A stretch of 53,071 nucleotides of DNA from a virus (IMGVR_UViG_3300027811_000005:1-53071), one strand, 5' to 3'. Counted from the first letter of the stretch, positions 10,994-33,542 are shown. The notes: a model not told the origin generated them from the sequence alone. Translations and numbers: made by a program.

Positions 10994-11005
10994 TAGGAGA
11001 TTCTA

Positions 11006-13556: not shown

Positions 13557-14441
13557 ATGAAACAGTGCTATATCGAAAAGCGGTTCAACACATCCAGCCA
13601 GGTGATCATCAGCCAGGTCAACACTATCCTTGAAGAATATCGTGGGCTGGGCTACGTCCTGACTCTTCGGCAACTCTACTATCAACTCGTCGCGCGGGGT
13701 TATGTCGAAAACGATATGAAGTCGTACAAGCGCGTCGGCTCGATTATTTCTGATGCACGGTTGGCGGGGCTGGTTGACTGGAGCATGATCGAGGACAGAG
13801 GCCGTGACGTCGTTGCCCCACCCCACTGGACAAGCCCCGCCGAAATCGTGGAGGCTGCCGCTCGCCAATTTGCAATTGACAAGTGGGCAGACCAATCTTA
13901 CCACGTAGAGGTCATGGTCGAGAAACAAGCCCTCGAAGGCGTCCTGATACCTGTGTGCCGCGAACTTGACATCTCTTTCACGGCCAACCGCGGTTATAGC
14001 TCGTCCTCTGCCATGCGAGAAGCAGGACTACGCATCATGGAGAAAATGGGCGCGGGCAAGGATGTCGTTATTTTCTACCTGGGAGACCACGACCCCAGCG
14101 GCATGGACATGACTCGCGACGTGCGCGAGCGATTGGGATTGTTCGCTGAAACTGAACTCATCGAAGTGGACCGTCTAGCGCTCAATTATGACCAAATCGA
14201 AGTCCTCAACCCACCCGAAAACCCGGCCAAGACCACAGATAGCCGGGCACAAGCCTACATCGCAGAGTTTGGAGAATCATCCTGGGAACTGGATGCCATC
14301 GAGCCGCGTGCTTTGGCAGATCTAGTGCGTCAGGCTACCCTTGCACTTCGGGACGAGCGCCTGTGGGACAGCAACATCAAAGAGGAAGCAAGGATGAAAA
14401 AGGCGCTGATGAACTTTGCTGCCACCTACGAGCAAGATTAG
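13557..14441 (+). CDS. Topo VI-A/Spo11-like TOPRIM-domain protein
   Basis: LTLRQLYYQLV (wHTH Tyr), VEVMVEKQAL, YLGDHDPSG (DxD), WELDAIEP. Confidence 0.8.
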   Translation: MKQCYIEKRFNTSSQVIISQVNTILEEYRGLGYVLTLRQLYYQLVARGYVENDMKSYKRVGSIISDARLAGLVDWSMIEDRGRDVVAPPHWTSPAEIVEAAARQFAIDKWADQSYHVEVMVEKQALEGVLIPVCRELDISFTANRGYSSSSAMREAGLRIMEKMGAGKDVVIFYLGDHDPSGMDMTRDVRERLGLFAETELIEVDRLALNYDQIEVLNPPENPAKTTDSRAQAYIAEFGESSWELDAIEPRALADLVRQATLALRDERLWDSNIKEEARMKKALMNFAATYEQD

Positions 14442-14595
14442 ACATTGTAGCAAGGTGCTGGGGGCTGGTGGCGTCCAGGCTGGCCAGCCCCTAGCGCCTT
14501 GATATGCTCCGCCAAAGTGGGCGCGGAAACCACGCCCCTACGGTACTGATAATAAGGCATTATGAGTTCAAAGGGAAGAAACGGGAGGGGAACGG

Positions 14596-14931
14596 ATGGG
14601 AAACGGGAACTTTGTAGAACTGCTGTTCGCGGTCATGGCAGCACTATTTCTGTTCGGATGTCTCTACAACGCCTTCGTGGCGCGCATCGAGCACGATGGT
14701 CAAGATCGCGGGTTTACGGCGTTCCTGGTGGTGGGCGGGGTCCTGGTCACGGTCGTGGCAGCCGGGTTGATTATCGGCCTGAGAGATGTGGCGATCCTGT
14801 TGGTTTGCTTTTCTGCCAGTGGGTTGCCCATGATCTGGGGTGGCTGGTCGAGGTATGCCAAGACGCGCCAGGCAGAGGAGAAGAAGGCAATCGAGATCAC
14901 CCGGAAGTTGCTCGACCGTGGTGGGTTATGA
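14596..14931 (+). CDS. Membrane protein (3 TM)
   Basis: Three hydrophobic segments; GGAGG RBS. Confidence 0.7.
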   Translation: MGNGNFVELLFAVMAALFLFGCLYNAFVARIEHDGQDRGFTAFLVVGGVLVTVVAAGLIIGLRDVAILLVCFSASGLPMIWGGWSRYAKTRQAEEKKAIEITRKLLDRGGL

Positions 14932-15143
14932 CTCAAAGGAAGGTAGGGGGCTATGGGTGGGCACAGGAGATCAATCGCGCGATTCGGGCAAACGACAAGG
15001 CGCGAGCGGCTGTGAGAAGAATCCTGGACGATAGACCCGGACCACAAATGATGGCGCTGATGTTGGCAGAGATTGCGATTTGCTTGAGTGAGAACCGGGC
15101 AGCGCTGGAGGAGGTGAACCGGATCGGAAAAGAAACTGGGTAG
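14928..15143 (+). CDS. Hypothetical protein
   Basis: ATGA overlap with the previous gene. Confidence 0.55.
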   Translation: MTQRKVGGYGWAQEINRAIRANDKARAAVRRILDDRPGPQMMALMLAEIAICLSENRAALEEVNRIGKETG

Positions 15144-15227
15144 GCAGTTGGAAATAGAGAGGGCGGGAGACCACAAGGACGGGCAACCACGAGGGTTGCC
15201 CCTACGAGCAGAAGGGGGTAAAGGGGA

Positions 15228-16220
15228 ATGGACGAACAGGGGAATACACAATTGGTAGCATTTGACGCCGGGGCTGGCGCCGTGAAGGTGTGGACCGGAA
15301 CGGTCGGCGTGGAGATTCCCAGCCAGGTGGCGGTGGACGGTCAGCGGATGGCAACGGTGATGATGGGCCTGCGGAAGGCCAAGCCGCCGATGCAGATTGG
15401 GTTTGACGGCGGGGAATTTTTCGTCGGCCCGGGTGCGCACGACTGGGGTCGCGCTGTGGAGAACCTGGATTACGAGCGGTTGACGGGGACGCCAGAGATG
15501 CGTGCGCTGTTTTACGCGGCGCTGACGGGCCTGGTAGCCGGTGCTCAGACACTTAAACTGGCCGTGATCGTTGGGTTGCCGATCGAGGCGTTGGGGTCCG
15601 AGACGGTGACGGCGCTGAAGGCATGGATGCTCGTCCAGCATCATTGGGCGACGAATGATGTGAACTATTCCGCGACGGTGACGGATGTGCGCTGCACCAG
15701 TCAGCCGGTCGGCGCGCTGTTCGACTATCTGCTCGACGATGAGGGGAGCTTTATCGCCAACCGCGCGAGCGCGTTCAAGGGCGAGGCAGGAGTCATCAGC
15801 ATCGGTCACAGTACGGTGGAGCTCCTGGGCGTGCGCAATCGGACACCTGTGCAAAAGTGGACGCGGGGAACAACGCTGGGCGTTCAGCGACTCTTGGACA
15901 TTATCCGGGGCGATCAATCCTATACGCGCGGCGAATTGGATGAGCGGCTGCGCGCAGGTAAACTGGATGTTCGCAACGCTCTACCGGTATGGTGGAGCGA
16001 GATCGCTGGGCACCTGGATCACGAATGGGGCCGCGACTGGCGCAGGTTTGAGATTGTCATCGCCGTGGGCGGCGGGACGGTTTTGTTGCGCTCTCAGTTG
16101 GAGCACAAGTTTGGAACGAAGGTATTCATCCCGGAGCAGCCCGTGATGTCGGTTGCACGGGGACTGTGGAAGCTGGGGATGAGCCAGGTGAAGAAAACTG
16201 ACCGGGAGGTGACAAAATGA
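15228..16220 (+). CDS. ParM/StbA-family actin-like partition ATPase
   Basis: AFDAGAGAVK phosphate-1, IVGLP, SQPVGA, ISIGHSTVE phosphate-2, AVGGG, SVARGL. Confidence 0.9.
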   Translation: MDEQGNTQLVAFDAGAGAVKVWTGTVGVEIPSQVAVDGQRMATVMMGLRKAKPPMQIGFDGGEFFVGPGAHDWGRAVENLDYERLTGTPEMRALFYAALTGLVAGAQTLKLAVIVGLPIEALGSETVTALKAWMLVQHHWATNDVNYSATVTDVRCTSQPVGALFDYLLDDEGSFIANRASAFKGEAGVISIGHSTVELLGVRNRTPVQKWTRGTTLGVQRLLDIIRGDQSYTRGELDERLRAGKLDVRNALPVWWSEIAGHLDHEWGRDWRRFEIVIAVGGGTVLLRSQLEHKFGTKVFIPEQPVMSVARGLWKLGMSQVKKTDREVTK

Positions 16221-17742: not shown

Positions 17743-18152
17743 AGTCATTGGAGACAACGAAACCCTCGACGACCTGGATCGCGTTGAGTGTTGTTTTCTC
17801 TGCCGGGTTCGTCTGCGCGGTGTCAGTCATAAGCCCCGCAGCGCTGCGAGCAGTTCCGGCCTCTTCCGTTGTGATTGGTTTTTTGGTGGTATTGGTGATC
17901 GGTCTGGCAGCAGCAGCGGCGGGAGGGGTGGCGATCTGGCAATGGCAAGAACAGCGAACCAAGCAAGAGCGTTGGGAGCGGGCAACACAATTGTATGCGC
18001 TGGCGGCAGGCAAGCATGGAGAGGGACGAGGACAGGCTCGCCACATGGCTGCTCCTGGAAATCAGGGCACGGTATTGGCCTTGCCGGTGTTATCCGCGCA
18101 GGACGATGAAGACGAACCGGTGATGGTGTTTGGAAAGTGGGGGGCACCATGA
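17739..18152 (+). CDS. Membrane protein
   Basis: Two TM helices; ATGA overlaps at both ends. Confidence 0.65.
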   Translation: MKSLETTKPSTTWIALSVVFSAGFVCAVSVISPAALRAVPASSVVIGFLVVLVIGLAAAAAGGVAIWQWQEQRTKQERWERATQLYALAAGKHGEGRGQARHMAAPGNQGTVLALPVLSAQDDEDEPVMVFGKWGAP

Positions 18153-19264
18153 AGGCAAGCACGACTCTTTTAGCGATTCTGTCTGCATTGATTTTGACTG
18201 CAATGCTGGCTCTTTCGGCGTGCGATGTTCAAACGATACCACAGAGCATGGAGACAGTTGGCTCGGGCGCCGCTGAAACGAGCGCCGCGTATGCGGGGGG
18301 ACAACTTACCGTGCAGGCGGCATTGTACCGAGTGACGCTTGAGGCGCAGCAGGCACAGACCAATCGAGAGCAGCAAGCGCAGGCTGCGACGCAGACTGCG
18401 GCGCAAGTTATGCGGGCTTCCGAAGCAGAGCACAGAGCGTTACTGGCCACTGAATCTGCACAAGCGACCGAACGAACTTTGCGCGCAACGGAGGCAGCGG
18501 CACAACTCGCTGCAACTGAGCGGGCCTGGCAAGCAACGGTTCAGGCTCAAGCGACTGATCATGCTATCCAAGCAACCGCTACAGAGCGGGCCTGGCAAGC
18601 AACGGCAGTGGCCCAAGCGACCGATAGCAGTTTGAGAGCCACGGACCGCGCAGTCGCCATGACAGCAACCCGGACGGCTGCGCAAGCGACCGAGACGCGC
18701 CAGGCTGCACTAGCGACTGCGACGCGACAAGCCGAGGAACGCGGCGAAGCGATGGCTTCTTTGCGTGACTATGGTATTCCTCTCGTGCTGCTGGCATTGG
18801 CCGGTGGAATTATCGCCGCGATCATCGTTGGGGCACGCTGGATTGCCAAGCGGCCGGTTGTATTTCCGCGCAATCCATTGGGGGACGCGGATCCGGTCGG
18901 AGTTCCACAGGACGGCGGTGGCTATGCTTTTCTCGACATTGACCGGCAACCAGGGCCGGTTATCAAGGTATTGCCGAATGGAATCGTCGAAGCACCCTTG
19001 CTGCGCTCGGCAGATCAGGAGGAGCGGACTACGGCGCGGGATCAGGCTGTGGATGGGGTAAGCCGCCCAAGATTGGGATCAGGCAGCAAGAGCGAAACGC
19101 AAGCGATGCTGCCCATGTCACCTCCGCCTTATCCCCAGGTGCCGGGGTTGCGCAGTATTCGGATTTTGCGGCGGGGGGATCAAGCGGTACGAGCCGGAGC
19201 ATTGCCGCCTGCGCAGTGGGAGGCAATTCAAGCGGATTGGAACAGCGGGGTGGGAGATGAGTGA
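18149..19264 (+). CDS. Lipoprotein-like/membrane protein with A/T/Q-rich helical repeats
   Basis: LSAC lipobox-like, ATERAWQAT repeats, second TM helix. Confidence 0.7.
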   Translation: MKASTTLLAILSALILTAMLALSACDVQTIPQSMETVGSGAAETSAAYAGGQLTVQAALYRVTLEAQQAQTNREQQAQAATQTAAQVMRASEAEHRALLATESAQATERTLRATEAAAQLAATERAWQATVQAQATDHAIQATATERAWQATAVAQATDSSLRATDRAVAMTATRTAAQATETRQAALATATRQAEERGEAMASLRDYGIPLVLLALAGGIIAAIIVGARWIAKRPVVFPRNPLGDADPVGVPQDGGGYAFLDIDRQPGPVIKVLPNGIVEAPLLRSADQEERTTARDQAVDGVSRPRLGSGSKSETQAMLPMSPPPYPQVPGLRSIRILRRGDQAVRAGALPPAQWEAIQADWNSGVGDE

Positions 19265-20681
19265 CGAGATTGCTCATTACTGGAACGCTATTCTTGCCAC
19301 GCTTGAGCAACGCAGGCTGACGAATGAGCGGACTCGCCAGGGCGGAGTGATCGTGCCGGAAGCTGACGCTTACGTGCTACCCGACCGGGTTGTGTTCGTG
19401 TTGGATATGCAACGTCTGGCGGGAATCTCGCGCGAGACATGGCTCACACCTAATCTCTGGAAGCAGTTCGGGGCAGCGCTCCAGGGACGGAGAACGTTCG
19501 TATCCGACAGCGGCGGGCTGGCGATCACCGTGGCACGTGAACCGAGCGCAACGCTGGGCAAAAAGCTACCGGAGCGGATTCTGTTGTCCGAGGAGCACTT
19601 GCTTGACAAGCCGTACCAGGTGTGCCTGGGTTATACCACCCGTTATCCTGTGACGCTGGATATTGCCGGAGAGCACCGCGCGATTCTGATCGGAGGGACG
19701 AGCGGGGGCGGAAAGACGAACTTGATGCAGTCTATCATTCTGCAACTGGCAGCCAAGCATACGCCGGCGGAGGTTCAATTCGCCATCGTGGACACCAAGT
19801 TGGTTGACTTTGGCGAAGATTACGCCAGCCTACCTAATCTGTTAGCGGACATTGCGCACACGTTGGACGAGGCTGACCGGCTGATCGAGCAAGTGGAGGC
19901 CGAGCGCACACGCCGCCAGATGTTGATGGCGCAGGCGGGCGTGGCGCGATGGGAAAAGTATGCTGACCCTGAACCCTTGCCGTTGCTCGTGTTGATGGTG
20001 GACGAGGCGGCTGATTTCGCTCGCCGACCGGCAATGAGGACGTTGAAAGAGGTCGCCCGCAAGGGACGCGCGTTCGGGATCAGCGTGGTGGTCGGGACGC
20101 AACGGCCCTCGAACGACGTGATTGATGCGCAGGTGAAGGCAAATCTTCCTACGGCGATCTCGTTCCAGACCCGGTCGGACGTTGAGAGCCGGGTCATTCT
20201 TGGAGTGAGCGGCGCGGAGAAACTATGCCGGAGGGGCATGGCGCTGATGTTCGTGGGTGGGCGCTGGGAGACGGTGCAGACACTGCTTGTGGAAGACGGG
20301 GCGGCTCACCGGTTGATTCAAGAGCATGTGCAGGTTGAACACCCCGCGCTATCCGAGATCGAGCAGCAGTTGGTGGCGACAGCGGTGGATGAACTGGGCG
20401 GGGAGTTCAAGATCGTTGGACTGTATGCCAAATATCGAGGCAAGATCAGCAAGCGGGCACTGACAGCACTGGCAAAGCAGTGGGAGGCGCGGGGCTGGCT
20501 ATCGCACCGGGTTGATGCGACGACAGCACGGCGTGTCACCAATGAACTGATGCGTGTCACCAGTCGTGACACCAGTCGTGACACCAATTTGGGGGCCGTA
20601 TCACCGCCTGACACCCGTTTCACCGTATCACCAGATTTGGTGGAGACGGTAGGGGGCGGGACTGATAAGAATGAATTATGA
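19257..20681 (+). CDS. FtsK/SpoIIIE (TraB-like) DNA translocase
   Basis: GGTSGGGKT Walker A, IVDTK, LMVDEAAD Walker B, RKGRAFGI, GTQRP, GAEKL; possible C-terminal wHTH. Confidence 0.9.
   Translation: MSDEIAHYWNAILATLEQRRLTNERTRQGGVIVPEADAYVLPDRVVFVLDMQRLAGISRETWLTPNLWKQFGAALQGRRTFVSDSGGLAITVAREPSATLGKKLPERILLSEEHLLDKPYQVCLGYTTRYPVTLDIAGEHRAILIGGTSGGGKTNLMQSIILQLAAKHTPAEVQFAIVDTKLVDFGEDYASLPNLLADIAHTLDEADRLIEQVEAERTRRQMLMAQAGVARWEKYADPEPLPLLVLMVDEAADFARRPAMRTLKEVARKGRAFGISVVVGTQRPSNDVIDAQVKANLPTAISFQTRSDVESRVILGVSGAEKLCRRGMALMFVGGRWETVQTLLVEDGAAHRLIQEHVQVEHPALSEIEQQLVATAVDELGGEFKIVGLYAKYRGKISKRALTALAKQWEARGWLSHRVDATTARRVTNELMRVTSRDTSRDTNLGAVSPPDTRFTVSPDLVETVGGGTDKNEL
20533..20632 (+). repeat. 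Eight 8-mer direct repeats (GTRWCACC-like), clt/TRS-like
   Basis: GTGTCACC x2, GTGACACC x2, GTATCACC x2, CTGACACC, GTTTCACC at the 3' end of the FtsK gene. Confidence 0.7.
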
Positions 20682-20813
20682 GAGCGGGGGAACCAGAATG
20701 AAAAAAGGCGTACACAAGGTATTCAAGGTAGCTGACCTTTATTGCGGCGCCGCCGTGGATTGTCGCATGGCGCTGGCGTTGTGCGGGGCGGCGATTCGGA
20801 TGACGAGGGGTGC

Positions 20814-21359
20814 ATGATGGAACTGGAAAAAGCGAAAGGCATTGCGGATTACGTGGTCGAGTTGTTTTCGCCTTTCTGCGAGCGAGTTCAGACCGCGGGA
20901 AGTGTGCGGCGCGGGAAGGCTGAGGTGAAGGACATTGAGATCGTGGCAATCCCCCAACCATGCACGGACCTGTTCGGTGCGCCAGCATCAGGCGAAACCG
21001 AACTGGATGGGATGGTGCGCTTTATGGTTGAGCGGGGCGAACTGAGTTTGAGCAAGAATGGGCCGCGCTACAAGCAGGCAACGCTCAAAGCAGGGATCAA
21101 TCTGGACTTGTTTCTGGTGCTTCCGCCGGCGCAATGGGGGGTGATCTTGGCGATACGCACAGGCCCGGCGGATTTCAGTCATTGGCTGGTGACACCGCGC
21201 TGCAAAGGTGGGGCGTTGCCATCGAATTATCAAGTGCGCGACGGTGGAGTGTATCTGGATGGGGGTTTGATTGAGATGCCAGATGAGGCTGACTGGTTCA
21301 ACTTGCTCGGACTGGAATGGATGGAGCCAGGGAAACGTCGGGCGAATTGGCGCAAGTAA
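20814..21359 (+). CDS. Minimal DNA polymerase X (pol beta-like nucleotidyltransferase)
   Basis: AGSVRRGKAEVKDIEIV, LDLFLV, RTGPADFS; lacks lyase and PHP domains. Confidence 0.88.
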   Translation: MMELEKAKGIADYVVELFSPFCERVQTAGSVRRGKAEVKDIEIVAIPQPCTDLFGAPASGETELDGMVRFMVERGELSLSKNGPRYKQATLKAGINLDLFLVLPPAQWGVILAIRTGPADFSHWLVTPRCKGGALPSNYQVRDGGVYLDGGLIEMPDEADWFNLLGLEWMEPGKRRANWRK

Positions 21360-21368
21360 AGCGGGGGG

Positions 21369-22355
21369 ATGGGGATGTTTGCACAAGCACAAAGTCAACC
21401 GCCGAAATTACTGGATAGGGTACGTTCGGCAATTCGGATCAAGCATTATTCGTTGAAAACAGAACATTCGTATGTGCAGTGGGTTAGACGTTTTATCCTG
21501 TTTCATGGCAAGCGGCATCCCAGCGAAATGGGTGCTCAAGAGGTCGAGCAGTTTTTGACTCATCTGGCAGTTGAGCGGCATGTGAGTTCCAGCACCCAGA
21601 ACCAGGCTTTCTCAGCATTGCTGTTTATGTACCATGACGTACTTGGACTGGAGTTGAATAACGTGAACGCTATGCGTGCCAAGCGTTCAGTATACATTCC
21701 AACGGTTTTGACCGTTGTAGAAACGCGCAAAGTATTGAGCAACCTTGATGGTGTCTACAGCCTGATTGGGCAGATTCTCTACGGCGGTGGGTTGCGATTG
21801 ATGGAGTGTCTGCGGTTGCGTGTGAAGGATATTGATTTTGAACGGCGCACTCTCACGCTGAGAGATACGAAATCGTATCGAGATCGTGTGACGTGTTTGC
21901 CCGAAGCTGTCGTTGGGTCACTCAGGCTGCACTTGGCGAAGGTGCGCGCTCAATATGATATTGATTTGGCGAACGGAAGAGCGGATGTTGAGTTGCCCGG
22001 CGCGTTGGCACTCAAGTACCCTAATGCTGGAAAGGAATGGGCTTGGCAATATGTCTTTCCTGCGAGCAAGTTTTCAACTGATCCAAGGTCTGGGGCAGTT
22101 CGCCGTCATCATCTATATGAGACGAGCGTTCAAAAAGCCATCAGCAGGGCGGCAAAAGGGACTGGGATAGCTAAGTTGGTTGGGCCGCACACGCTGCGAC
22201 ATTCGTTTGCAACGCATTTGTTGGAAGCGGGTACTGACATTCGCACGATTCAGGAGTTGCTAGGGCATCGAGATTCGAAAACGACGATGATTTACACACA
22301 TGTTGCAAAGTGCGGCGCTGGGATCGTTTCGCCGCTGGATCGGGTTGGATATTAG
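21369..22355 (+). CDS. intI: Integron integrase
   Basis: [37 protein letters not shown]; IntI-specific insert [26 protein letters not shown]...DPRSG..RRHH; [21 protein letters not shown]. Confidence 0.97.
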
Positions 22356-22368
22356 ATACCCGCAGGGT

Positions 22369-22387
22369 GTCTAATAACGAGTTAGGT
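22369..22387 (+). other. attI-like site
   Basis: GTCTAAT-AACGA-GTTAGGT has the same geometry as the attI1 simple site (TAAA-N5-GTTRRRY); about 14 bp after the intI stop. Confidence 0.75.
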
Positions 22388-22393
22388 GCTTCC

Positions 22394-22615
22394 ATGATAA
22401 TTTGTGAAGTCTGCAAAACGAATCAACGCTACAAAAAGGTGTGGGAAAAATTTGGAAAGCGTGTCATCTGCATGATGTGCGGTCAGCGATACGCCTTTGC
22501 AAAGGACGGCTCTGCAGTTCTAAGAACGCACCTAACTCCCGTTGCAGTTGACGGCGCTGGTAGTACTGACATCGAAGCGAGCGCGGATAGCGACCGCGCC
22601 GCAACTGAACTCTGA
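22394..22615 (+). CDS. Cassette 1: small Zn-ribbon-like protein
   Basis: CEVC...CMMC; reads through attC1. Confidence 0.65.
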   Translation: MIICEVCKTNQRYKKVWEKFGKRVICMMCGQRYAFAKDGSAVLRTHLTPVAVDGAGSTDIEASADSDRAATEL

Positions 22616-22622
22616 GTTGGGC
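22530..22622 (+). other. attC1
   Basis: ACCTAAC...TTGCAGTTG...CAACTGAA...GTTGGGC; GCACCTAAC complements cassette start GTTAGGTGC. Confidence 0.9.
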
Positions 22623-22643
22623 GGACTGCCCAGAAAGGATGAA

Positions 22644-22949
22644 ATGATACACTATAGCGAAACAAAAATTGGTGACATTTTGAAAATCGTTGGGGCTGGC
22701 GCTCCTGGGTATGCTGCCCTGGGTGAACTTGTTCGCGTTGTCGAAGTTCATTCACAATCTGTGTTTGTTGAAAATCGAGACGGCGAGCGCATTGAATTCC
22801 TATTCAATTGCGGTGCGGCCCGTCTTGAGCCAACAGAGTGGACAAAAGATTTTCCCCCATCCGCCCAACTAGTCGTTGCAGTTGACGGCGCTGGTAGCAC
22901 TGACATTGAAGCAAGCGTGGATAGCGACCGCGCCGCAACTGAACTCTGA
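22644..22949 (+). CDS. Cassette 2: hypothetical protein
   Basis: AAGGA RBS; MIHYSETKIGD...; reads through attC2. Confidence 0.7.
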   Translation: MIHYSETKIGDILKIVGAGAPGYAALGELVRVVEVHSQSVFVENRDGERIEFLFNCGAARLEPTEWTKDFPPSAQLVVAVDGAGSTDIEASVDSDRAATEL

Positions 22950-22957
22950 CGTTAGGC
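22863..22957 (+). other. attC2
   Basis: GCCCAAC...GTTAGGC; near-identical to attC1; TCCGCCCAAC complements GTTGGGCGGA. Confidence 0.9.
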
Positions 22958-22971
22958 CGCAAGAGGTAAAC

Positions 22972-23268
22972 ATGGCTTCTTTGAATTTGAATCTCGAACC
23001 AACACAACGCGGATTTGTCCGCGCAGACTTCAATGATTTGTATGGCGCTTGGTGCTCGATTCAGGAAAGCTCACTGGCTACCGATGACGCTATCTGGCTC
23101 GGCCTCGATGAAGGCACTCATCATCATGTCACGGGCGAATGTATGGCACGTATGCACCTCAGCCGCGACCAGGTCGCAGAGTTGATTCCAGTGCTACAGT
23201 ATTTTGTAGAGAATGGTCACTTGCCATCTGGCGAGCGGCCTAACAAGGGCTTGGAGCCGACGCCCTAA
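22972..23268 (+). CDS. Cassette 3: conserved phage-type hypothetical protein
   Basis: GAGG RBS; TQRGF...DLYG..CSIQESSLAT..AIWLG...RMHL. Confidence 0.75.
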   Translation: MASLNLNLEPTQRGFVRADFNDLYGAWCSIQESSLATDDAIWLGLDEGTHHHVTGECMARMHLSRDQVAELIPVLQYFVENGHLPSGERPNKGLEPTP

Positions 23269-23329
23269 GCAGGCTCAATTACAATAACGATTCGCGGTCA
23301 CGGGCGCGACTCAAACCCGACCGTTAGGC
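23238..23329 (+). other. attC3
   Basis: GCCTAACAAGGGCTTGGAGCCGACGCC...GGCGCGACTCAAACCC..GTTAGGC; GCGGCCTAAC complements GTTAGGCCGC. Confidence 0.92.
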
Positions 23330-23354
23330 GGCAGCTTCGCCATAGTAGGTCAAG

Positions 23355-24170
23355 ATGAACATTTTCTTTGTTGGGTTGAATCCGAGATGGCAACAATTCA
23401 AATGGCTACCATACGGCCTAAACGTGATGTATTCTGCCGCAGGATTTTGGAGCGGGAATGGTTGGCGACGCAAGCGATACATCAAACACGCTGGGATACG
23501 CTGGCTTGACTGTGGCGGTTTCACGCTATTGAATCGTTACGGTGATTTTCCGTTCACGGTGGTAGCACTGATGAATCTTGTGGCGTTCCTAAATCCGCAC
23601 TACTACGCCAGCATGGATTACCCATGTGAGCCTGACATCTCGCGTAGGCTGGGGCTGATGAACAATGATGAGAGAATCCGCGCCACAGTCACAAACACGG
23701 TTGCGATGATTGAATGGGAGAGCCAAGTTGGCGGCCAGCTTGTGCCAGTGATCCAGGGCTACACACTGGACGAGTACAGAAAATGCGTTGACCTACATCA
23801 CCAGAAAGGAACTATCCGGGAGTACATGGCTGTTGGCTCAATGTGCCGCCGTATCTCTGACGCAGAGTTGCACAATCTCATACCAGGAATAGCGACCCAC
23901 GCGCGGCAGGCGGGGGTGTGACGGTTGCACTTCTTTGGTTTGAAACTCTCTGAATCGTTACGCGATCTGTCAGAGTTCATCTGGTCACGTGATAGCGCGG
24001 TCGCACTCGATGACTATGATTCAGAGTTACGCGCTGGGCGTGGCGGTCGCCGCTGGCCGGTAGGCCAGTCGGAAAAGCGGCAATCGTTCGATGTGTTTTT
24101 CAACAGACTAAATTGTCTCGGTCTGCGCTACACGCTGCCGTCTAACAAGGGCTTGGAGCCGACGCCCTGA
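23355..24170 (+). pseudogene. Cassette 4: TGT/DpdA-like (deazaguanine transglycosylase-like) gene with in-frame TGA at 23919-23921
   Basis: WLDCGGF, SMDYPCEP, PVIQG, AVGSMCRR, then in frame after the stop RLHFFGLK and SRDS (TGT barrel motifs). Confidence 0.75.
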
Positions 24171-24231
24171 GCAGGCTCAATTACAATGACGACTCGCAGT
24201 CACGGGCGCGGCTCAAGCCCGGACGTTAGAA
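24140..24231 (+). other. attC4
   Basis: GTCTAACAAGGGCTTGGAGCC...GGCTCAAGCCC..GTTAGAA; near-identical to attC3. Confidence 0.92.
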
Positions 24232-24242
24232 GGCGAGGAAAA

Positions 24243-24488
24243 ATGAGCGGTATTATAAAAACTTGGTGTCCAGATTGCAGGCGTGAAGTTCTGAATGTGC
24301 GTCCATATCTGCAAGACGGCGACGAATTCATTTGCGGGCTTTGCAATCAAAGGTTCGTAGTTCGCTTTGAACGCCTTTTAACTCATGTTGCAGTCGATGC
24401 AGCTTACTGCGAGTGCTCTGAGTATGTTCCTGCTTTTCTTATCAGCGGCGCACCGTGCACCAACTGTGGAAAATCACAGCGCGGCTGA
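24243..24488 (+). CDS. Cassette 5: Cys-rich Zn-ribbon protein
   Basis: GAGG RBS; CPDC, CGLC, CEC, CTNC. Confidence 0.7.
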   Translation: MSGIIKTWCPDCRREVLNVRPYLQDGDEFICGLCNQRFVVRFERLLTHVAVDAAYCECSEYVPAFLISGAPCTNCGKSQRG

Positions 24489-24504
24489 ATCGCAGACGTT
24501 AGAC
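24376..24504 (+). other. attC5
   Basis: TTTTAAC...TTGCAGTCG...CGGCTGAA...GTTAGAC; CGCCTTTTAAC vs cassette start GTTAGAAGGCG (one mismatch). Confidence 0.8.
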
Positions 24505-24515
24505 GGAAAGCTAGA

Positions 24516-25430
24516 ATGTCAGAACGCGCGAGGTTCTACAACGATGATAGTCTGCTGGTCATGGCGACATTTGCAGAAGGTTTATTCGATGCGATTGTTA
24601 CCGATCCGCCTTATGAAGTCAATTTGAACAAGACGCGCTGTGCTTGGGACAGATGGCCCGAACCTGAGACATGGAAACAGATGTATCGCGTTATAAAACC
24701 CGGCGGGTTGCTGGCATTTACCATTGCGCCGCATGTGGCACACCTGCGCGTGCCAGATGTCTTTTCCGCCGGTTGGGAATTGCTAGAAGTTGGCTTTTGG
24801 GTGTGGGGCAATGGGCGTCCAGTTCGCCAAGACCGCCTAAAAAGGTGTTTTGACTTGGTGTACTTTTGTGGCAAGGGAATGCGCAGCCTATTCACGAATG
24901 ATGCTCGTATGGCGAATCGAGCGAACGCCATTACTGGTAGGCGCGGAAAGGTGACTGCACGCGCTGGTGGTTTGGGGTCTCAATTTCACGATTGCAAACA
25001 CTCACGCTCCTACGAGTGCGCACAAGACGACTATCATCCTGCGAACGTCGCCTGCTCTCAGGATGATGCGCCATTTGAAAAGACAGGCTACGAGTTACTT
25101 TTCGCGGTCAAGCGATTGCTACCAGTTGGAAAGGCGCACACCAAACACCCAACGAAAAAGCCGCTCGACCTGATAGGGCAAATCATCAAGTTGGTAAGCC
25201 GCGAGGGCGACACAGTTTTTGACCCGTTCATGGGTGACGGTACGACTGGCGAGTCGTCGTTGATTCTCAATCGCTCATTTGTCGGGATAGAGGCAGTGCC
25301 AGAGTATTTTGAGCGCGCAAAGAAGAACATCACCGGTGTCGAGGCGCAATTGCACTTGCCCGCTTTCCGTCTAACAAGCGGTTCCAGCCGACGCGCTTCG
25401 CTTGCCGATGTGCAAGATGAGTTGCTATAG
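24516..25430 (+). CDS. Cassette 6: N6-A/N4-C DNA methyltransferase (beta class)
   Basis: IVTDPPY, HPTKKP, VFDPFMGDGTT, FVGIE. Confidence 0.93.
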   Translation: MSERARFYNDDSLLVMATFAEGLFDAIVTDPPYEVNLNKTRCAWDRWPEPETWKQMYRVIKPGGLLAFTIAPHVAHLRVPDVFSAGWELLEVGFWVWGNGRPVRQDRLKRCFDLVYFCGKGMRSLFTNDARMANRANAITGRRGKVTARAGGLGSQFHDCKHSRSYECAQDDYHPANVACSQDDAPFEKTGYELLFAVKRLLPVGKAHTKHPTKKPLDLIGQIIKLVSREGDTVFDPFMGDGTTGESSLILNRSFVGIEAVPEYFERAKKNITGVEAQLHLPAFRLTSGSSRRASLADVQDELL

Positions 25431-25495
25431 ATTAGTGTCTCGCGGTTCGTCGCGCATGGCCTGTGACGCGCGCGGATGAACCGCAGACATTATAT
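25369..25495 (+). other. attC6 (R' degenerate, ATT instead of GTT)
   Basis: GCTTTCCGTCTAAC is the exact complement of start GTTAGACGGAAAGC; GCGGTTCCAGCCG...CGGATGAACCGC stem. Confidence 0.8.
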
Positions 25496-25598
25496 ACCGT
25501 GTGAGTTAAACGCGGAATTTTCCTAAAGAGGTTAGTACCGATTTTGCCGGTCTGGGGCAGGGTGGGGAGTGACGGGAATTTCTTCATCGGAGTAGACA

Positions 25599-28500
25599 AT
25601 GTCAGTATTTGACGAGATCAAGGACAAACTGAGGATCGAGGATGTGATTGGCGAGACGGTGACGCTCAAGATGAGCGGGCACAGCATGACGGGGTTCTGC
25701 CCGTTTCACGACAATCACAATACGCCGGCGCTGGCTGTGTGGCCCGAGACGCAGACGTGGAAGTGCTTTGCCGGGTGCGGCAGCGGGGACGTGTTCGACT
25801 GGGCAGAAAAGCGCGATGGGATGGACAAGCGCGGGGTGCTCAAGCTGCTGGCGCGCAAGGCGGGGGTGGAATTGACGCTTGCCACGCCGGAGCAATTGAA
25901 GGCGCAGGAGAAGCGAAAGGAAGCGACGCTGGTGGCGCAGGTTGCGGCCGCGTTCTTTCGGAAGCGAATGACGGAGGCGGCTGGCGCGCCTGGCGTGGAA
26001 TATGCCAGGAGCCGTGGCTGGGCCAGCGATACGTTGAAGGGGTTGGGGTATTTTGGGAAGGATTGGGACGGGCTGAAAAAGCACATGGCAGAGGCAGGCG
26101 TTGATCTGGAGTGTTCGGCGGCTGTGGCGCTGGTTGGGTATCGCGGCGATGTGGCGGCGTGGGGGAAGCGTTGGGGCGTGCGTGTGACTGATGAGGAGAT
26201 CAAGGAGGGGAAGATCCACGCGATGCCGCCAGAGATGCTGATGTATTGCCATGTGGAGGGGCGGAGTGTGGTGTATGTGAGCGGGAGGAGATTGCCCTCA
26301 TCCCCAACCCTTCTCCCCCTGGGGGAAGGGGGTATGCCCAAGTCGTGGAATCCGCCGGCGCGGCTGTTTGGGGAGAGGCAGCCATATTTCAATGCGTGTT
26401 TCAAGCATGGCAAGCCGGTGTTGATTGTGGAGGGCCAGGGGGATGCCAAGACGCTGGAAGAGTGGAAGTTGCCGGGGATTGCGTTGGCTGGGTGCGGGAC
26501 TGATAACGCTTTGTTATCGGTGCTGAAAAAGTGCGGGCAGGTGACGGTTGCGCTCGATCACGACCGGGCCGGGGAGTATGCTGCGACGGGGTTGATTCCC
26601 TACGGGACTGAGCCGCAGCCTTTCACGGAGCGGGTGAAGCGAAGCCTGTGCTGGAAGTTGGTCGAGGCCGGATTGCCCGCGACGAAGGTGAAGGTCTTGA
26701 CGTGGCCGCGCGAGGAGGGGAAGGATAAGGCCGATGCGAACGATTGCCTGAAGGCAGGCATGACGGGGGAGCAGGTCGGGGCGCTGGTGAAGGGAGCCGA
26801 ATCATTCCTGGATGTGATGCTGGGGTTCTCTTCCGATGATGGGAAGGACGAGGCAGAGCGGGACGAGGCGCGGATGATGGTGTTCGAGTTGCTGGCCGAT
26901 GTGGATGCGCGCTGGGTGATCGCGCGAAAGAAGCAACTCGCCAAGCAGCTCGATTACGATTCGGATACGTTCGAGCGCATGTTGATGGAGGCTCGGAAGC
27001 GGGCGGGGCAGGATGAGACGGGCCGCCCGATGTATGGCGTGTCCGGAGGACGGATGGTTCACAACAATTTCGACCGGATGGGGAATCCCTACGAGCAGAC
27101 GTTGCTCAACGGGGTGTTGAACATTACGGGCGACCTGGTGCTGGACGACGGGGAGAAACAAATGCGCCGATTCACGATAGAGTTCACGCGGGAGAACGGC
27201 GCCAAGTTCCAGCCGACCGAGGTTGACGTGGAGGATTACGCTCCTTTGAATTGGCTCTATTCTGCCTGGGGCGTGAATGCGATCGTGCCGGCTGGGCAGA
27301 GCGTGAAAGAGCACCTGCGAGTGGCGATGCTAACGCTTTCCAAGAACGTCGAGACGCTGCACCGGTATCAACACACGGGCTACCACAATATTGACGGACG
27401 GATGGTGTATCTGACGACGGTGGGCGCCGTTGGACGGGATGGGGTGCAGGTTGAGATCGAGCGGGCGGCGGACCGGTACCGGCTGCCGAGCAAGCCTGAA
27501 AACGTGGTCGAGGCGGCCAAGGCAAGTTTCAGGAGCCTGGGCGCTGGGAACCTGTACATCACGGTCCCACTGTTTTCAACCATGTACCTCGCGCCGCTCT
27601 CTTCTATTCTGGAGCCTGCGTTTTCAGTGTGGCTGTATGGGACAACTGAAACCTACAAGAGCGCCATCACGGCGCTGATGATGTGTCACTATGGCCGCTT
27701 CCTCTACAACACCCCGCCCGGATCATGGAGCGGGAGCACGGAGGTTGGCTTGCGTGTGATGGCGTTCATGCTCAAGGACATGCCGTTCTGGATTGACGAC
27801 TTTACGGCGCAGGCGACGGAGCGCGGAGACGACAACTTGCACGACCGGGCCGGGCGGGTGTTGCGGGATTGGGCCAACCGGACCGGCGGGCTGAAGGGGA
27901 CGGCGGAGGGGGGATTACGCAAGGTTCACAAGCCGCGCGGGATCGTGGTCAACAGCGCAGAGATCTTGCCGTCCGTGCGCTCGATCCGGTCAAGGCTACT
28001 GATGCTGGAAATGCAAAAGGGGTTTGTGAACCTGGACGACATTTTGGAGCGGTACAAGAACAGCGAGGTTGATCTATATCCTCACGCGATGGCAGCATAC
28101 GTACTCTGGGTAGGGGATCACTATGCCGAGTTGGAGAAAAGCCTCCCGCTTCGGCGCGATCAACTGGTGGCAGAGTGCAGAAACCAGAAAGGGGACTCGC
28201 GCGAATACAACCACGTGGCTACGGAGATGGTGGCCTTTGAACTGGCGACGCGATGGATGAATGAGATCGGGGCGATTGATACCATTGAAGCGAGCGCGAT
28301 GGTGAAATTCGCGTTCGATATGATGATGGCGGCAGCAGACGAGCAGACGGTTGACACACAGGTGGACGAGAACCCGGTCAACAAGTTTATGAATGAGCTG
28401 GAGCAGATGCTGGCGGATGGGACGGCGTTCGTCCGCCACGCAGATACTCCGAATGAAGAGACTCGCTCATTGCCGGAATCGGGACAACGGTCAGTGAATG

Positions 28501-28793
28501 CGCGGTTCATCGGTTGGTACGACAGCCTTTATTGGTATTTGCTCGACTCTGCAACAGAACTAGTCATAACTCGCGTCAACCGCCGCAAGGGGACGCTGGG
28601 GACAAACCCACGTGGACTGATGCGGCAACTGCGAGATATTGGACTGTTGCACCCTGACAATGACGACAGGTTTACCTATAGGTTTTCAGGAGTAGCTACA
28701 AAGCCGAGAGTACACAGAATCGTCAGGAGCAACGTGGGGGAGCCTTCTCCAGATAGCGGGATTGCCGGGTATGCCGGGAATGACGGGAATTAG
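25599..28793 (+). CDS. DNA primase-helicase (CHC2 Zn finger + TOPRIM + helicase-like domain)
   Basis: CPFHDNHNTP...WKCFAGCG, IVEGQGD, ALDHDRAG, DAND; P-loop-like LYGTTETYKS and WIDDF. Confidence 0.9.
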   Translation: MSVFDEIKDKLRIEDVIGETVTLKMSGHSMTGFCPFHDNHNTPALAVWPETQTWKCFAGCGSGDVFDWAEKRDGMDKRGVLKLLARKAGVELTLATPEQLKAQEKRKEATLVAQVAAAFFRKRMTEAAGAPGVEYARSRGWASDTLKGLGYFGKDWDGLKKHMAEAGVDLECSAAVALVGYRGDVAAWGKRWGVRVTDEEIKEGKIHAMPPEMLMYCHVEGRSVVYVSGRRLPSSPTLLPLGEGGMPKSWNPPARLFGERQPYFNACFKHGKPVLIVEGQGDAKTLEEWKLPGIALAGCGTDNALLSVLKKCGQVTVALDHDRAGEYAATGLIPYGTEPQPFTERVKRSLCWKLVEAGLPATKVKVLTWPREEGKDKADANDCLKAGMTGEQVGALVKGAESFLDVMLGFSSDDGKDEAERDEARMMVFELLADVDARWVIARKKQLAKQLDYDSDTFERMLMEARKRAGQDETGRPMYGVSGGRMVHNNFDRMGNPYEQTLLNGVLNITGDLVLDDGEKQMRRFTIEFTRENGAKFQPTEVDVEDYAPLNWLYSAWGVNAIVPAGQSVKEHLRVAMLTLSKNVETLHRYQHTGYHNIDGRMVYLTTVGAVGRDGVQVEIERAADRYRLPSKPENVVEAAKASFRSLGAGNLYITVPLFSTMYLAPLSSILEPAFSVWLYGTTETYKSAITALMMCHYGRFLYNTPPGSWSGSTEVGLRVMAFMLKDMPFWIDDFTAQATERGDDNLHDRAGRVLRDWANRTGGLKGTAEGGLRKVHKPRGIVVNSAEILPSVRSIRSRLLMLEMQKGFVNLDDILERYKNSEVDLYPHAMAAYVLWVGDHYAELEKSLPLRRDQLVAECRNQKGDSREYNHVATEMVAFELATRWMNEIGAIDTIEASAMVKFAFDMMMAAADEQTVDTQVDENPVNKFMNELEQMLADGTAFVRHADTPNEETRSLPESGQRSVNARFIGWYDSLYWYLLDSATELVITRVNRRKGTLGTNPRGLMRQLRDIGLLHPDNDDRFTYRFSGVATKPRVHRIVRSNVGEPSPDSGIAGYAGNDGN

Positions 28794-31325: not shown

Positions 31326-31988
31326 TCATCCAGACTCCTTGCCTGCCTCCCACGCCTCAGAAAATTCACGACTAGCAAACATCTCTGCAAGGCCACTGAT
31401 TTGCTTCAAACGTAATACCTCGTCTGGATCAAGCCCCAATTCGCGCGCAATCCATTCATCCGAATGATTCCGGCGCGACAACTCGACAACTATCTCGCTC
31501 ATGCCTTGCACTAGATGTTTGCCGCGCGCACGATTGTGCCTGATGGTGGACGCGATTCTGTCTGATCTATCCTCTCTCCATGTGTTGATGGTTGTTACTG
31601 GCAAATATCCGAGCGTGCGTTTTCGTATCGCCTTACATTCCTTACCGATGCGGGTGCGGTGAAAGCCATCTACGACCTCGCGGTGACCATCTACCAGCCA
31701 TGTAACGACGGGTTGTGTGTAACCATCCTCTTTTACGCTCAATTCCAGCAGTCGCATCTCCGGCGGCGCGACCTGATTAGGGTTATAGTCATTAGCCTCC
31801 ACCGCATCAGACAGAACCCACAACACGCAATCTACCGGCTCATCTTTGAGTGGGCTGACGGCATGGAGAGCGATTTTGATCTCGTTGATAACTTCAATGC
31901 GTTCGTCGTTTGGCAATCCAGCGATTTCCTCACACAACGATTTTGCCTGCTCAATGACATTGTTTCCGATTAGGGTAAGATTCCCCAT
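31326..31988 (-). CDS. ibrB: IbrB-like ParB/Srx-domain protein
   Basis: EPVDCVLWV, ANDYNPNQVAPPEMRLL, DGYTQPVV, VVDGFHR, STIRHNRARGKH. Confidence 0.9.
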   Translation of the reverse strand: MGNLTLIGNNVIEQAKSLCEEIAGLPNDERIEVINEIKIALHAVSPLKDEPVDCVLWVLSDAVEANDYNPNQVAPPEMRLLELSVKEDGYTQPVVTWLVDGHREVVDGFHRTRIGKECKAIRKRTLGYLPVTTINTWREDRSDRIASTIRHNRARGKHLVQGMSEIVVELSRRNHSDEWIARELGLDPDEVLRLKQISGLAEMFASREFSEAWEAGKESG

Positions 31989-33190
31989 GCCGACCTCCGA
32001 TTTCTCATGATCTTTAGGTAGCGCTCGTATGCCTGTGATTTGTGCTGGCTGAAGGATAAGCCTTTGCACCAGTAGTCGTTACGCAAAAGTGCCTTGCAGA
32101 TACGCCGCCAACTCGGAACTGTTTTTTGAGCCTCGGCCTCGACGTCAGCTTCGTCGGGTATCGTCGGGTGCCCATGTTCTTGCCACCAATGTATGAACAC
32201 AGCGATTTTGTTGGTGAAATGTTCCTTTGTTTGTGGCGGAAGGCTCTCTAGCAGGAGCATAGCGAACGATTGCCATGTGTGTCCTTCCGGTTTCGTGATT
32301 TTCAGACGACCAAGGATGTTGCCAGATTCTTGGGCGTAGAGCGCGCCACTGTTGGCTCCGTTCACACGAGCCACTACACGCGCCCACGTCTCTGGCTCGA
32401 TCAGGTGAAATAGCCATAACCCTTTTCGCTGATCGTCCCCATAGGGCTGGCAGATACGAGCCTGGTGAATCGTCAATCCGGCCTGGTACATCAAGTCGTA
32501 GAGATGATTGTAGGGCTTGCCGGTCTTGCCGTGATAGGTCCAGATGTCCTCGGTTGACCAATCATAGATAGGGTAAATGTTCCACAAGGTCGGATCGTCA
32601 CCATCCTCGCGGACGCAGTTAGTCCATCCACGACCGCCGAATTTGACGCCATGCCCAGCGATGGTGCGCCAGCGATTCAGGCTCTCTGCTGTGCGAATTC
32701 CAACCATGCAGGCTGTCAACTGTCCCTGACCATACCAAAATCCGAACTTTGGCACAAACTCCTCGAATTCCATTGCATAGGTGTAGAACGGGAAAAATGA
32801 TGGATCGGTGATGGCGATGTCTGGGGGTTGCCTGATCCAGTCGGTTTCTCGTCCAGGTTCCCATGCGATCCAGTGATGCTCATACATGCTGACAGCGTTG
32901 CGCAGATGGATCGGCAGACATTCCCAGTAAGGTTCAATATTGTCACGGTACAGATCGAGCACCTCCAAAATGTGGTCAATGGTGAGTTTATACTGCCCTT
33001 CCAAATCCAGAAATAGAACGCCGACCTTGCGCCCGCGCGGGATTGCCTCATCCATCGCCATGTGCAACATCACAGTAGAGTCTTTCCCGCCGGAAAATGA
33101 GACGTAGACACGCGGGAATGTGTCGAATGTCCACGAGATACGTTGACGGGTTGCTTCGTACACGCTCATTCCAAGCATTCGTTTAGGCAT
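31970..33190 (-). CDS. ibrA: IbrA-like PAPS-reductase-domain/DUF3440 protein
   Basis: SFSGGKDS PP-loop, GIRTAESLNR, YPIYDW, RICQPYGDDQR, SWRRICK.LL.NDYWC. Confidence 0.92.
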   Translation of the reverse strand: MPKRMLGMSVYEATRQRISWTFDTFPRVYVSFSGGKDSTVMLHMAMDEAIPRGRKVGVLFLDLEGQYKLTIDHILEVLDLYRDNIEPYWECLPIHLRNAVSMYEHHWIAWEPGRETDWIRQPPDIAITDPSFFPFYTYAMEFEEFVPKFGFWYGQGQLTACMVGIRTAESLNRWRTIAGHGVKFGGRGWTNCVREDGDDPTLWNIYPIYDWSTEDIWTYHGKTGKPYNHLYDLMYQAGLTIHQARICQPYGDDQRKGLWLFHLIEPETWARVVARVNGANSGALYAQESGNILGRLKITKPEGHTWQSFAMLLLESLPPQTKEHFTNKIAVFIHWWQEHGHPTIPDEADVEAEAQKTVPSWRRICKALLRNDYWCKGLSFSQHKSQAYERYLKIMRNRRSAWGILP

Positions 33191-33542
33191 CGTTATCCTC
33201 TTGGATTGAACCATCCGGGGCGACGGTAATACGTCTCGTCCGCATCACGCCCAACTCAACGCACTCTCTGATTTCATATCGCCCAGGCTCAAGCGTGTAC
33301 CAATCGTACACGCCACGAGCGCCAAGCTTTTGAGCATGACTATAGTCTTTCATCATGCGCGGGATGGGAGTGCGACCATTTTGCTCCAGGCATGTTACGG
33401 ATGGGTAGTAACGCACTTGTCCATATTTCATCGCCCGGCACATCTCGCGGACTTGGATATTCTTGATCTTGCCGCGATCAAGCGCGTGCATGTAGGCGTG
33501 ACAATCATCACCAACGACTTCGAGTTTGATGATCGCATTCAT
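33183..33542 (-). CDS. Hypothetical protein
   Basis: Overlapping operon with ibrA; DYS.A...GARGVY motif. Confidence 0.65.
   Translation of the reverse strand: MNAIIKLEVVGDDCHAYMHALDRGKIKNIQVREMCRAMKYGQVRYYPSVTCLEQNGRTPIPRMMKDYSHAQKLGARGVYDWYTLEPGRYEIRECVELGVMRTRRITVAPDGSIQEDNDA

Follow-up and report, generated by a model that had tools for sequence, protein, structure and literature searches.

Integrons are regarded as bacterial devices, and their links with phages as captured fragments of host integrons or clusters of attC sites that lack an integrase. The locus described here lies on the IMG/VR virus record IMGVR_UViG_3300027811_000005, a single contig of 53,071 bases that is classed as linear and was analysed whole (hereafter the window), and consists of an integron integrase gene (intI) followed on the same strand by an attI site and an array of six gene cassettes. 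The nearest described cases are those of Qi et al. 2023 (PMC9892861), who report three complete integrons, one integrase without cassettes and 17 attC clusters from 10,705 phage genomes; the integrons are in temperate phages and resemble captured host integrons (a Vibrio anguillarum phage, class 1 in P1, Shewanella), and five methylases were found in phage cassettes, for which a benefit against restriction was proposed. The window resembles the phage integrons of that study in bringing together an integron integrase, attI and attC sites, cassettes and methylases in a phage genome. It differs from the cases as presented there in its phage-only clades of IntI, in the co-orientation of integrase and cassettes, in its position within a replication module and in the visible exchange of cassettes between near-identical phages.

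Two further systems are comparable. Reverse chromosomal integrons, e.g. that of Treponema denticola (PMC3607928; bioRxiv 10.1101/2020.05.09.085589), share with the window an intI that is transcribed in the same direction as the cassettes, but as described in these sources they are bacterial and chromosomal and carry ordinary bacterial cargo. Sedentary chromosomal integrons have been presented as banks of cassettes for defence against phages (Darracq et al., bioRxiv 10.1101/2024.07.02.601686; Science 2025). The window is like these banks in that the cassettes would take part in the conflict between phage and bacterium and the array would be a store of swappable small systems; the banks as described there are bacterial and defensive, whereas here the carrier is a phage and PADLOC gave no defence match beyond its methylase models.

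The array is probably a complete reverse integron that is native to a tailed-phage lineage, where it would form a changeable methylation and accessory locus, and not a captured piece of a host integron. The intI product matches TIGR02249 at 428.6 bits (cutoff 265), with positions 1-315 of the 315 in the profile aligned, and also matches Pfam Phage_integrase and Phage_int_SAM_4. Read by eye, its translation contains RHRY-type catalytic residues and, as the extra segment specific to IntI, 'KYP..G..W.W.YVFP...DPRSG..RRHH'. The attI heptamer and the R'' box of attC1 (ACCTAAC) are exact reverse complements of each other. All cassettes are 3' of intI with their open reading frames (ORFs) on the plus strand, and the classical divergent layout is absent; because integrase and cassettes share a strand and the array follows intI, the element is grouped with the reverse integrons. 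It sits in a same-strand block of early and replication genes, between an FtsK-like gene and a primase gene (Table 1).

The heptamer and six attC-like sites were first placed by hand from the sequence. The window's own attC sites are of two types that took different registers in a MAFFT alignment and gave no common structure line, and a detector of attC features and a covariance model from other loci were used instead. This model (R1), which draws on 20 attC sites in 12 viral loci other than the window, was searched against the whole window on both strands with filters off, and its top four matches were attC1 to attC4 at exactly the hand-set coordinates, on the plus strand only (E 8e-6 to 0.011). 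The detector, purpose-written to score R boxes and a stem that bulges on its 5' arm, found five sites on the real plus strand as against one in eight shuffled windows, and it recovers long bacterial arrays with perfect chaining. Hairpin folds are clear for attC1, attC2 and attC4 and weaker for attC3, and bulged bases are confined to the 5' arm; attC2 is 95% identical to attC1 over 76 nt (repeat D2) and attC3 is 88% identical to attC4 (repeat D1). The remaining two sites are degenerate: attC5 retains its R''/R' boxes, forms no hairpin (z +0.52) and was not listed by R1 up to an E value of 10, and the R' box of attC6 reads ATTATAT. Each cassette opens with bases complementary to the R'' box at its own end, exactly at four of the six junctions and with one mismatch at the other two, the pattern to be expected of cassettes that had each been circles carrying one attC. 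At the degenerate sites, the R'' box of attC5 (TTTTAAC) is one mismatch from the complement of the preceding R' box (GTTAGAA) and that of attC6 (GTCTAAC) is the exact complement of its predecessor (GTTAGAC).

Table 1. Features of the integron and of its phage context. Positions refer to the window unless a locus is named; E, E value with model R1; z, bottom-strand fold score; stem, stem score of the detector.
Feature	Position	Strand	Remarks
intI, integron integrase, full-length	21369-22355	+	co-oriented with cassettes
attI crossover heptamer GTTAGGT	22381-22387	+	26 bp 3' of intI stop
Cassette array	22382-25495	+	six cassettes
Cassette 1	22382-22616	+	zinc-ribbon ORF 22394-22615, 73 aa; reads into attC1
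Cassette 2	22617-22951	+	ORF 22644-22949; conserved ~75-aa family
Cassette 3	22952-23323	+	ORF 22972-23268; small phage family, four strands and a helix
Cassette 4	23324-24225	+	DpdA-like gene 23355-24170; in-frame TGA at 23919-23921
Cassette 5	24226-24498	+	zinc-ribbon ORF 24243-24488, 81 aa; second Cys pair coded inside attC5
Cassette 6	24499-25489	+	orphan N6/N4 DNA methyltransferase ORF 24516-25430, 304 aa
attC1	22530-22622	+	E 0.011, 16 bits; z -3.44; stem 13.5
attC2	22863-22957	+	E 8.3e-6; z -2.84; stem 14
attC3	23238-23329	+	E 9.8e-5; z -1.04 (weak); stem 9
attC4	24140-24231	+	E 2.7e-5; z -4.39; stem 14.5
attC5, degenerate	24376-24504	+	R''/R' boxes present, poor L stem; stem 5.5
attC6, terminal	25369-25495	+	good stem, 12; z -1.50; 8.8 bits, E 0.84 (marginal)
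FtsK/SpoIIIE-like gene	19257-20681	+	upstream in same-strand phage gene block; phrog_1358 3.7e-57
ORF immediately 5' of intI	20742-21359	+	tblastn homologues adjoin intI in L002, L034, L056
Primase/helicase	25599-28793	+	directly 3' of array; phrog_6444 6.3e-27 and other primase families
Tape measure protein	106-2085		PHROG match
Tyrosine integrase	12036-13463		PHROG match
ParB-like gene	15228-16220		PHROG match
Large terminase	40104-41564		PHROG match
Portal	41561-42904		PHROG match
Major head protein	45732-46673		PHROG match
attC with coded zinc ribbon	L001:8686-8813		
attC with coded zinc ribbon	L001:9971-10101		
attC with coded zinc ribbon	L008:3551-3678		
attC with coded zinc ribbon	L029:12024-12139		
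attC with coded zinc ribbon	L036:11166-11320		

The element is not an isolated case. IntI relatives are encoded in 67 IMG/VR viral loci, and the detector delimits 16 co-oriented arrays with 48 cassettes when the window and Virus Rctr41k are included, the same architecture thus recurring in 15 other viral records. In these 16 arrays attI is mostly 26-49 bp 3' of intI, and by the authors' own count the R-box junctions are exact in 39 of 48. Virus Rctr41k is a GenBank record (KX853513, Caudoviricetes) found by DNA search: its 'xerD' is an integron integrase (383 bits), and six attC-bounded cassettes on the same strand, including a dcm (C5) methylase, show perfect R-box chaining. The main text of Qi et al. 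2023 (PMC9892861) does not mention it, although the supplementary tables may list it. In L008, L012, L036 and L056 the integron has head or packaging genes no more than 10 kb away, and relatives of the window's ParB, primase or FtsK genes are present in 13 loci. Four contigs (L003, L005, L006 and L011) end 159-252 bp after intI, which suggests that assembly fails where cassette arrays vary or contain repeats and that arrays are under-recovered; metagenome assemblies may thus systematically miss the cassette arrays of phages.

A quick IQ-TREE analysis of 123 IntI rows, from which 13 rows had been dropped for stops or short length, placed the window's integrase in a clade of 13 rows (Shimodaira-Hasegawa-like approximate likelihood ratio test 99), all of them viral and either co-oriented or ending just after intI. 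L029, Rctr41k, L034 and L035 form a second viral co-oriented clade (support 99). The rows of a neighbouring clade of 42 (support 97) come from bacterial genome assemblies and are divergent or without an assigned layout except for one contig-end row, and none of the 80 fetched bacterial-genome loci falls inside the window's clade. The closest relatives in bacterial genomes, from Chloroflexota, Cyanobacteria, Burkholderiales and others, are 53-61% identical and mostly belong to classical divergent arrays. Co-orientation is not unique to phages: co-oriented arrays of 4-9 cassettes with ordinary bacterial cargo are also present on the bacterial-genome contigs L142 (unclassified bacterium), L143 (Thermoanaerobaculia), L149 (Gemmatimonadaceae) and L186 (Acidobacteriota). 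The phage type differs from these four examples in the short distance of its attI from the intI stop, as against ~130-360 bp where an attI was found, and in its methylase-rich cargo, as against a methylase motif in 0 of 25 cassettes, or in 0 of 27 when two doubtful cassettes of a fifth bacterial-genome contig, L169, are counted as well. Full-text literature searches turned up neither a phage-specific lineage of integrases nor an account of cassettes exchanged between phages.

Turnover of the cassettes is visible in one pair of viral contigs from different samples. Over 10,994 nt, as far as GATAG|TT in attI, the identity of L034 and L035 is 99.97%; past the G|TT point (position 10992-10994) they share nothing and carry unrelated cassettes, one with a C5 methylase cassette and the other with N6/N4 methylase ORFs. 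This divergence is the footprint expected of IntI-mediated exchange within a phage backbone.

The cargo of the co-oriented phage arrays was compared with that of divergent control arrays from 10 bacterial-genome loci and 6 viral-labelled loci (57 cassettes, 62 ORFs). Pfam searches of the 54 phage ORFs gave five N6_N4_Mtase, two C5 methylase and one DpdA match, two of the D12 class (one additional ORF, just under cutoff), one match each to DnaJ, LemA and radical SAM, and several zinc-ribbon families. The controls carry GNAT, PemK, BrnA, HicA, ferritin, TPR, SUKH, DinB, STAND and MerC, and the toxin-antitoxin and GNAT genes present among them are missing from the related phage arrays. DNA methylases, of three different families, are the commonest recognisable function in the phage cargo and account for 8 of 54 ORFs, including one (L012) under its Pfam cutoff at 21.2 as against 22 bits, compared with 0 of 62 control ORFs (Fisher p 0.0016, for arrays that are not independent samples). 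No control ORF contains the [DNS]PP[YFWH] motif and no DNA methylase is among the 25 of 44 control families listed; two weak BLAST matches (E 0.001-0.005) connect phage methylases with control ORFs. ORFs with CxxC...CxxC pairs are also enriched, at 14 of 54 in the phage arrays and 3 of 62 in the controls (p 0.0015). One side finding concerns a 355-aa cassette ORF at L007:9561-10628, which has a weak radical-SAM match (4.1e-5, under cutoff) and stands between two methylase-like cassettes.

In the window itself, an earlier note made from the sequence alone had read the cargo as phage genes with DNA-modification enzymes among them, and this stands, with every item that it named present at the position given, in an integron that is genuinely phage-borne. 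The solitary DPPY methyltransferase it named is the ORF of cassette 6, which matches Pfam N6_N4_Mtase (PF01555) at 1.8e-28 and 100.4 bits (cutoff 26.7) and the PADLOC models MTase_II (3.7e-31) and oMTase. The gene is intact and the sole ORF of its cassette, with the DPPY motif near the N-terminus and an FxGxG-type motif, FDPFMGDG, near the C-terminus, and nothing else in the genome matches PF01555, PF00145 or PF02086. Its neighbours, a zinc-ribbon ORF and the primase gene, have no PADLOC match, and no restriction enzyme lies alongside. Relatives at ~30% identity are found in 1,586 phage records, and ~44 metagenome proteins are 44-90% identical to it. Since the gene is located between the degenerate attC5 and attC6, the methylase cassette of this copy is probably fixed in place.

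The TGT/DpdA-like gene of the same note was also recovered, though split by a TGA. It matches Pfam DpdA (PF23859) at 2.2e-12; the N-terminal ORF alone reaches 47 bits (cutoff 27), and when the gene is read through with an X at the stop the match spans it, covering residues 45-214 at 51.1 bits. Recoding of TGA was considered as the cause of the stop and rejected, since long ORFs (among them the 1064-aa primase, the terminase and the portal) are open in translation table 11, and no variant at this position was present in contigs assembled from two runs of a single soil sample. The closest viral relatives, encoded in L069 and L070, share 51% and 48% identity with the cassette gene over 261-270 aa and are uninterrupted, with a sense codon at the position of the window's TGA; they keep a C-terminal zinc ribbon that the cassette copy is without. 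Relatives occur in 403 phage records, of which 397 are mycobacteriophages with the annotation queuine tRNA-ribosyltransferase, and a search by sequence against solved structures gave no match. The DpdA-like cassette of this copy is probably inactive.

Phages are known to counter restriction with orphan methylases and with 7-deazaguanine modification. Such methylases and the DpdA-dependent 7-deazaguanine modification of phage DNA have reportedly been covered by Murphy and colleagues in 2013 and Hutinet and colleagues in 2019. The window resembles these known cases in its solitary N6/N4 methylase and its DpdA-like gene, both with many phage relatives, and departs from them in that both are packaged as integron cassettes. 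Unlike the known phage DpdA genes, the one in the window is interrupted and has no genes of the preQ0 pathway nearby.

The other four cassettes encode small proteins. The two zinc-ribbon ORFs listed earlier, in cassettes 1 and 5, each have CxxC...CxxC and are weakly similar to one another (E 3e-4); family matches are sub-threshold for both (TIGR04104 for cassette 1), and no relatives of the cassette 5 ORF were found in viral contigs. The ~75-aa family of cassette 2 has at least 240 homologues at 56-89% identity. The last ~25 residues of the cassette 2 protein are attC2 in translation and are modelled as disordered, with a predicted local distance difference test score (pLDDT) <50; the model as a whole has a pLDDT of 70.8, and its matches in the PDB are SH3/KOW/Tudor-like with Z <=7.5, a generic fold, so that the protein is predicted to be a generic SH3-like barrel. 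Cassettes 2 and 3 both encode phage-type small proteins, of families that are common in phages, and that of cassette 3 comprises 54 homologues and 63 viral-contig loci (search with a 9-row alignment, A6). The cassette 3 model (pLDDT 84.9) has fold matches in BFVD to uncharacterised proteins of phages CcrColossus and Phabio (E 2e-6 and 3e-5), and its nearest Atlas clusters are 78-90% viral. Foldseek against the PDB gave nothing at E <=0.001, and VIA-align gave PC4/Sub1/Pur-alpha-like chains at Z 3.3-5.3, which is under that tool's meaningful level and serves as a lead only. No toxin-antitoxin, resistance or defence family was found in the cargo by Pfam, NCBIfam and PADLOC scans, the methylase models excepted, which agrees with the earlier statement that toxin-antitoxin and resistance genes are absent. 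Nor was a described anti-defence family found among the small cassette proteins in Pfam, NCBIfam or PADLOC, no dedicated anti-defence library having been searched.

Some phage attC sites also encode protein. In five of 48 the ORF reads through the R''-L'' arm, which yields a 'T-K/Q-R-A-x-D' stretch, and on into a CxxC...CxxC zinc ribbon coded in the attC loop before a stop (Table 1); a looser CxC...CxxC is coded within attC5 of the window, and no zinc ribbon is coded in the loops of 117 control attC sites. A class of ~125-132-nt attC sites with strongly conserved arms, GCCYAACA.AGCGTGCA...GGTAACGCAAACCGTTRG, is common to many phage arrays (A8: 20 sites, 12 viral loci). The Anaerolineales arrays L177 and L181 have attC sites of similar length, a likeness that may be a clue to the host or the source of cassettes. 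The six window attC sites, searched with blastn-short against all 358 loci, gave only two matches of 21-24 nt (L142, L181) and no host assignment.

The relatives of the window's cargo are mostly not integron cassettes. None of the two DpdA relatives and none of the 12 viral loci of the cassette 2 family has an attC flank; for the cassette 3 family, a downstream attC site was found at ~3 of 63 viral loci (L220 and a doubtful L207 by script, L205 by model) and at 2 of 80 metagenome loci, and 3 of 52 distant methylase relatives have a flanking site, short hairpins only. No IntI was detected within the fetched flanks of the cargo-homologue loci L069-L122 and L204-L358. A few metagenome proteins, P0177 and P0178 for instance, share the same attC-derived or 5'-boundary residues and look like the same cassette elsewhere. 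The close non-cassette phage relatives fit cassettes that were drawn from the phage gene pool. As most homologues are without attC flanks, a large shared pool of attC-flanked copies is not seen, and the phage-specific cassette pool that had been raised as a possibility gains no support. Contig L205, a viral contig of 73 kb, has two strong attC sites after its relative of cassette 3, at 4264-4355 and 4506-4627 (E 3e-7 and 8e-11); no IntI is present within 4 kb of the pair, which is thus an integrase-less attC cluster in a phage.

Three other explanations of the array have been weighed. It is improbable that it is passenger DNA, i.e. a fragment of a host chromosomal integron taken up by imprecise excision or recombination and useless to the phage. 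The complete integrons in the account of Qi et al. 2023 all resemble captured host pieces, moderately close IntI relatives are common in bacterial genomes, and two attC sites and one gene have decayed in this copy; the integrase nevertheless belongs to an all-viral clade, its orientation is reversed with respect to most bacterial relatives, the position of the array after intI is conserved across contigs, the cargo is of phage type and unlike that of the control arrays, and cassettes have been exchanged in the constant backbone of L034 and L035. It is highly improbable that the association is an artefact, whether from chimeric assembly or from a plasmid or bacterial segment miscalled as viral. 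Structural and replication genes lie to either side of the integron in one layout on the same strand, CheckV completeness is 100%, and records of the window's own proteins come from two contigs, of which the longer measures 53,332 bp. Assembled public contigs (Logan) from two runs of one soil sample, possibly the source and the only sample with public runs, cover the join from intI to attC1 and that from attC2 to the primase without differences, and the layout recurs in a GenBank phage record as well as in records obtained independently from other samples. These observations outweigh the facts that the record is a metagenome assembly in which no exact terminal repeat was found, that ParB-like and FtsK-like genes are typical of plasmids too, and that the Logan contigs break at the attC1/attC2 repeats.

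The integron might also be active but serve as a shuffler of any small dispensable phage gene, with the methylases used for regulation, packaging, replication control or superinfection. Most cargo consists of small proteins to which no function is assigned, the two conserved small families of the window are mainly ordinary resident phage genes, DnaJ-domain, LemA and radical-SAM-like ORFs are among the cargo, and no known anti-defence family was identified in it. Such a role is rather unlikely all the same, in view of the predominance of DNA methylases from three families among the recognisable functions, which fits selection for varied methylation specificities, of the additional DpdA-type gene, and of the place of both modifications among established anti-restriction devices.

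The preferred reading, that of a native phage integron with a changeable methylation locus, has several results to contend with. An intact DNA-modification gene is present in only one of the six window cassettes, the DpdA-like gene being interrupted by its premature stop, and no QueC, QueD, FolE or radical-SAM genes were detected in the genome (PF06508, PF01242, PF01227 and PF04055, none over cutoff); supply of the 7-deazaguanine base by the host is possible. With attC5 and attC6 degenerate, part of the array may no longer be mobile. Homologues of the cargo are rarely attC-flanked and are mostly ordinary non-cassette phage genes, and any part of the four small cassette proteins in counter-defence would be speculative. 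No sigma-70-like promoter site was found on the plus strand of 18000-26000, where counts of such sites are not above those of shuffled sequence, with a consensus that may not be that of the host. The attC sites of the related loci were called by the authors' script and not by IntegronFinder, 5 of 10 large flanking ORFs tested had no PHROG match and checks for hallmark genes covered some of the IMG/VR contigs; the limits stated with the cargo comparison count here too. Furthermore, the anti-restriction idea for phage methylase cassettes is not new and is already contained in Qi et al. 2023 (PMC9892861). The suggestion of an anti-restriction or counter-defence kit in the earlier note therefore stands in part, being favoured by the methylase enrichment across arrays and less so by the window's own cassettes, and that of shufflable cassettes is favoured by the divergence of L034 and L035 exactly at attI but not by the last two attC sites of the window.

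How such an element might operate can be outlined. IntI would be made during infection, co-transcribed with the surrounding genes, and would recombine folded attC strands with attI or with other attC sites, so that cassettes could be swapped with co-infecting phages, prophages or host integrons. As no promoter of their own was found, the cassettes are inferred to be expressed by read-through from upstream. Methylase cassettes would methylate the phage DNA and thereby protect it from host restriction enzymes of matching specificity, and the array would act as a changeable methylation and accessory-gene locus; an anti-restriction role of the cassette methylases is plausible. A bolder version can be put forward only tentatively, in which a tailed-phage lineage keeps its own reverse integrons as a fast-changing counter-restriction locus, with the integrase expressed in each infection, cassettes derived from ordinary phage genes and traded among phages, each of which would thereby alter its repertoire of DNA modifications, and some attC sites doubling as coding sequence for C-terminal zinc-ribbon tails of the cassette proteins. 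If true, this locus would be the mirror image of the bacterial integrons that store anti-phage defence cassettes.

What is new here is a phage-only integrase lineage with its own layout, a methylase-rich cargo and visible exchange between near-identical phages, which together would make integrons a tool of phages in their contest with restriction systems. Integrons may serve to reshuffle accessory genes in phages too, and not in bacteria alone. The locus bears on how phages vary DNA methylation and, through the close non-cassette phage relatives of its genes, on the origins of cassettes, and it points to small phage proteins worth screening for counter-defence activity.

The remainder of the window is a phage genome in which the PHROG matches (Table 1) also include minor tail proteins; Rfam and tRNA scans gave no matches. 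The ORF immediately 5' of intI has a weak Pfam DNA_pol_B_thumb match (5e-5, under cutoff). Within the array, no excision joints were seen in the contigs of the two runs; three small 'skips' within attC2/attC3, from low-depth contigs of 90% likeness, probably represent different attC variants, and the loose ends at 22861-22894, a hint of further sequences attached to arms like those of attC2, are not counted as evidence. Grouped at 12036-16220 are genes for a tyrosine integrase, a 'DNA topoisomerase' (phrog_6247) and a ParB-like protein; the phage may be temperate or plasmid-like. A strong 67-nt hairpin at 44286-44352, with AAC/GTT ends and attC-like in the detector (total 18), stands alone among the head genes; it was not found by the covariance model and is probably terminator-like. 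On the minus strand, 31970-33214 encodes a PAPS-reductase and DUF3440 protein (phrog_2302, 2.6e-88; PF11922 and PF01507). This protein is presumably IbrA/DndC-like and would then add another possible DNA-modification function to the phage, outside the array.

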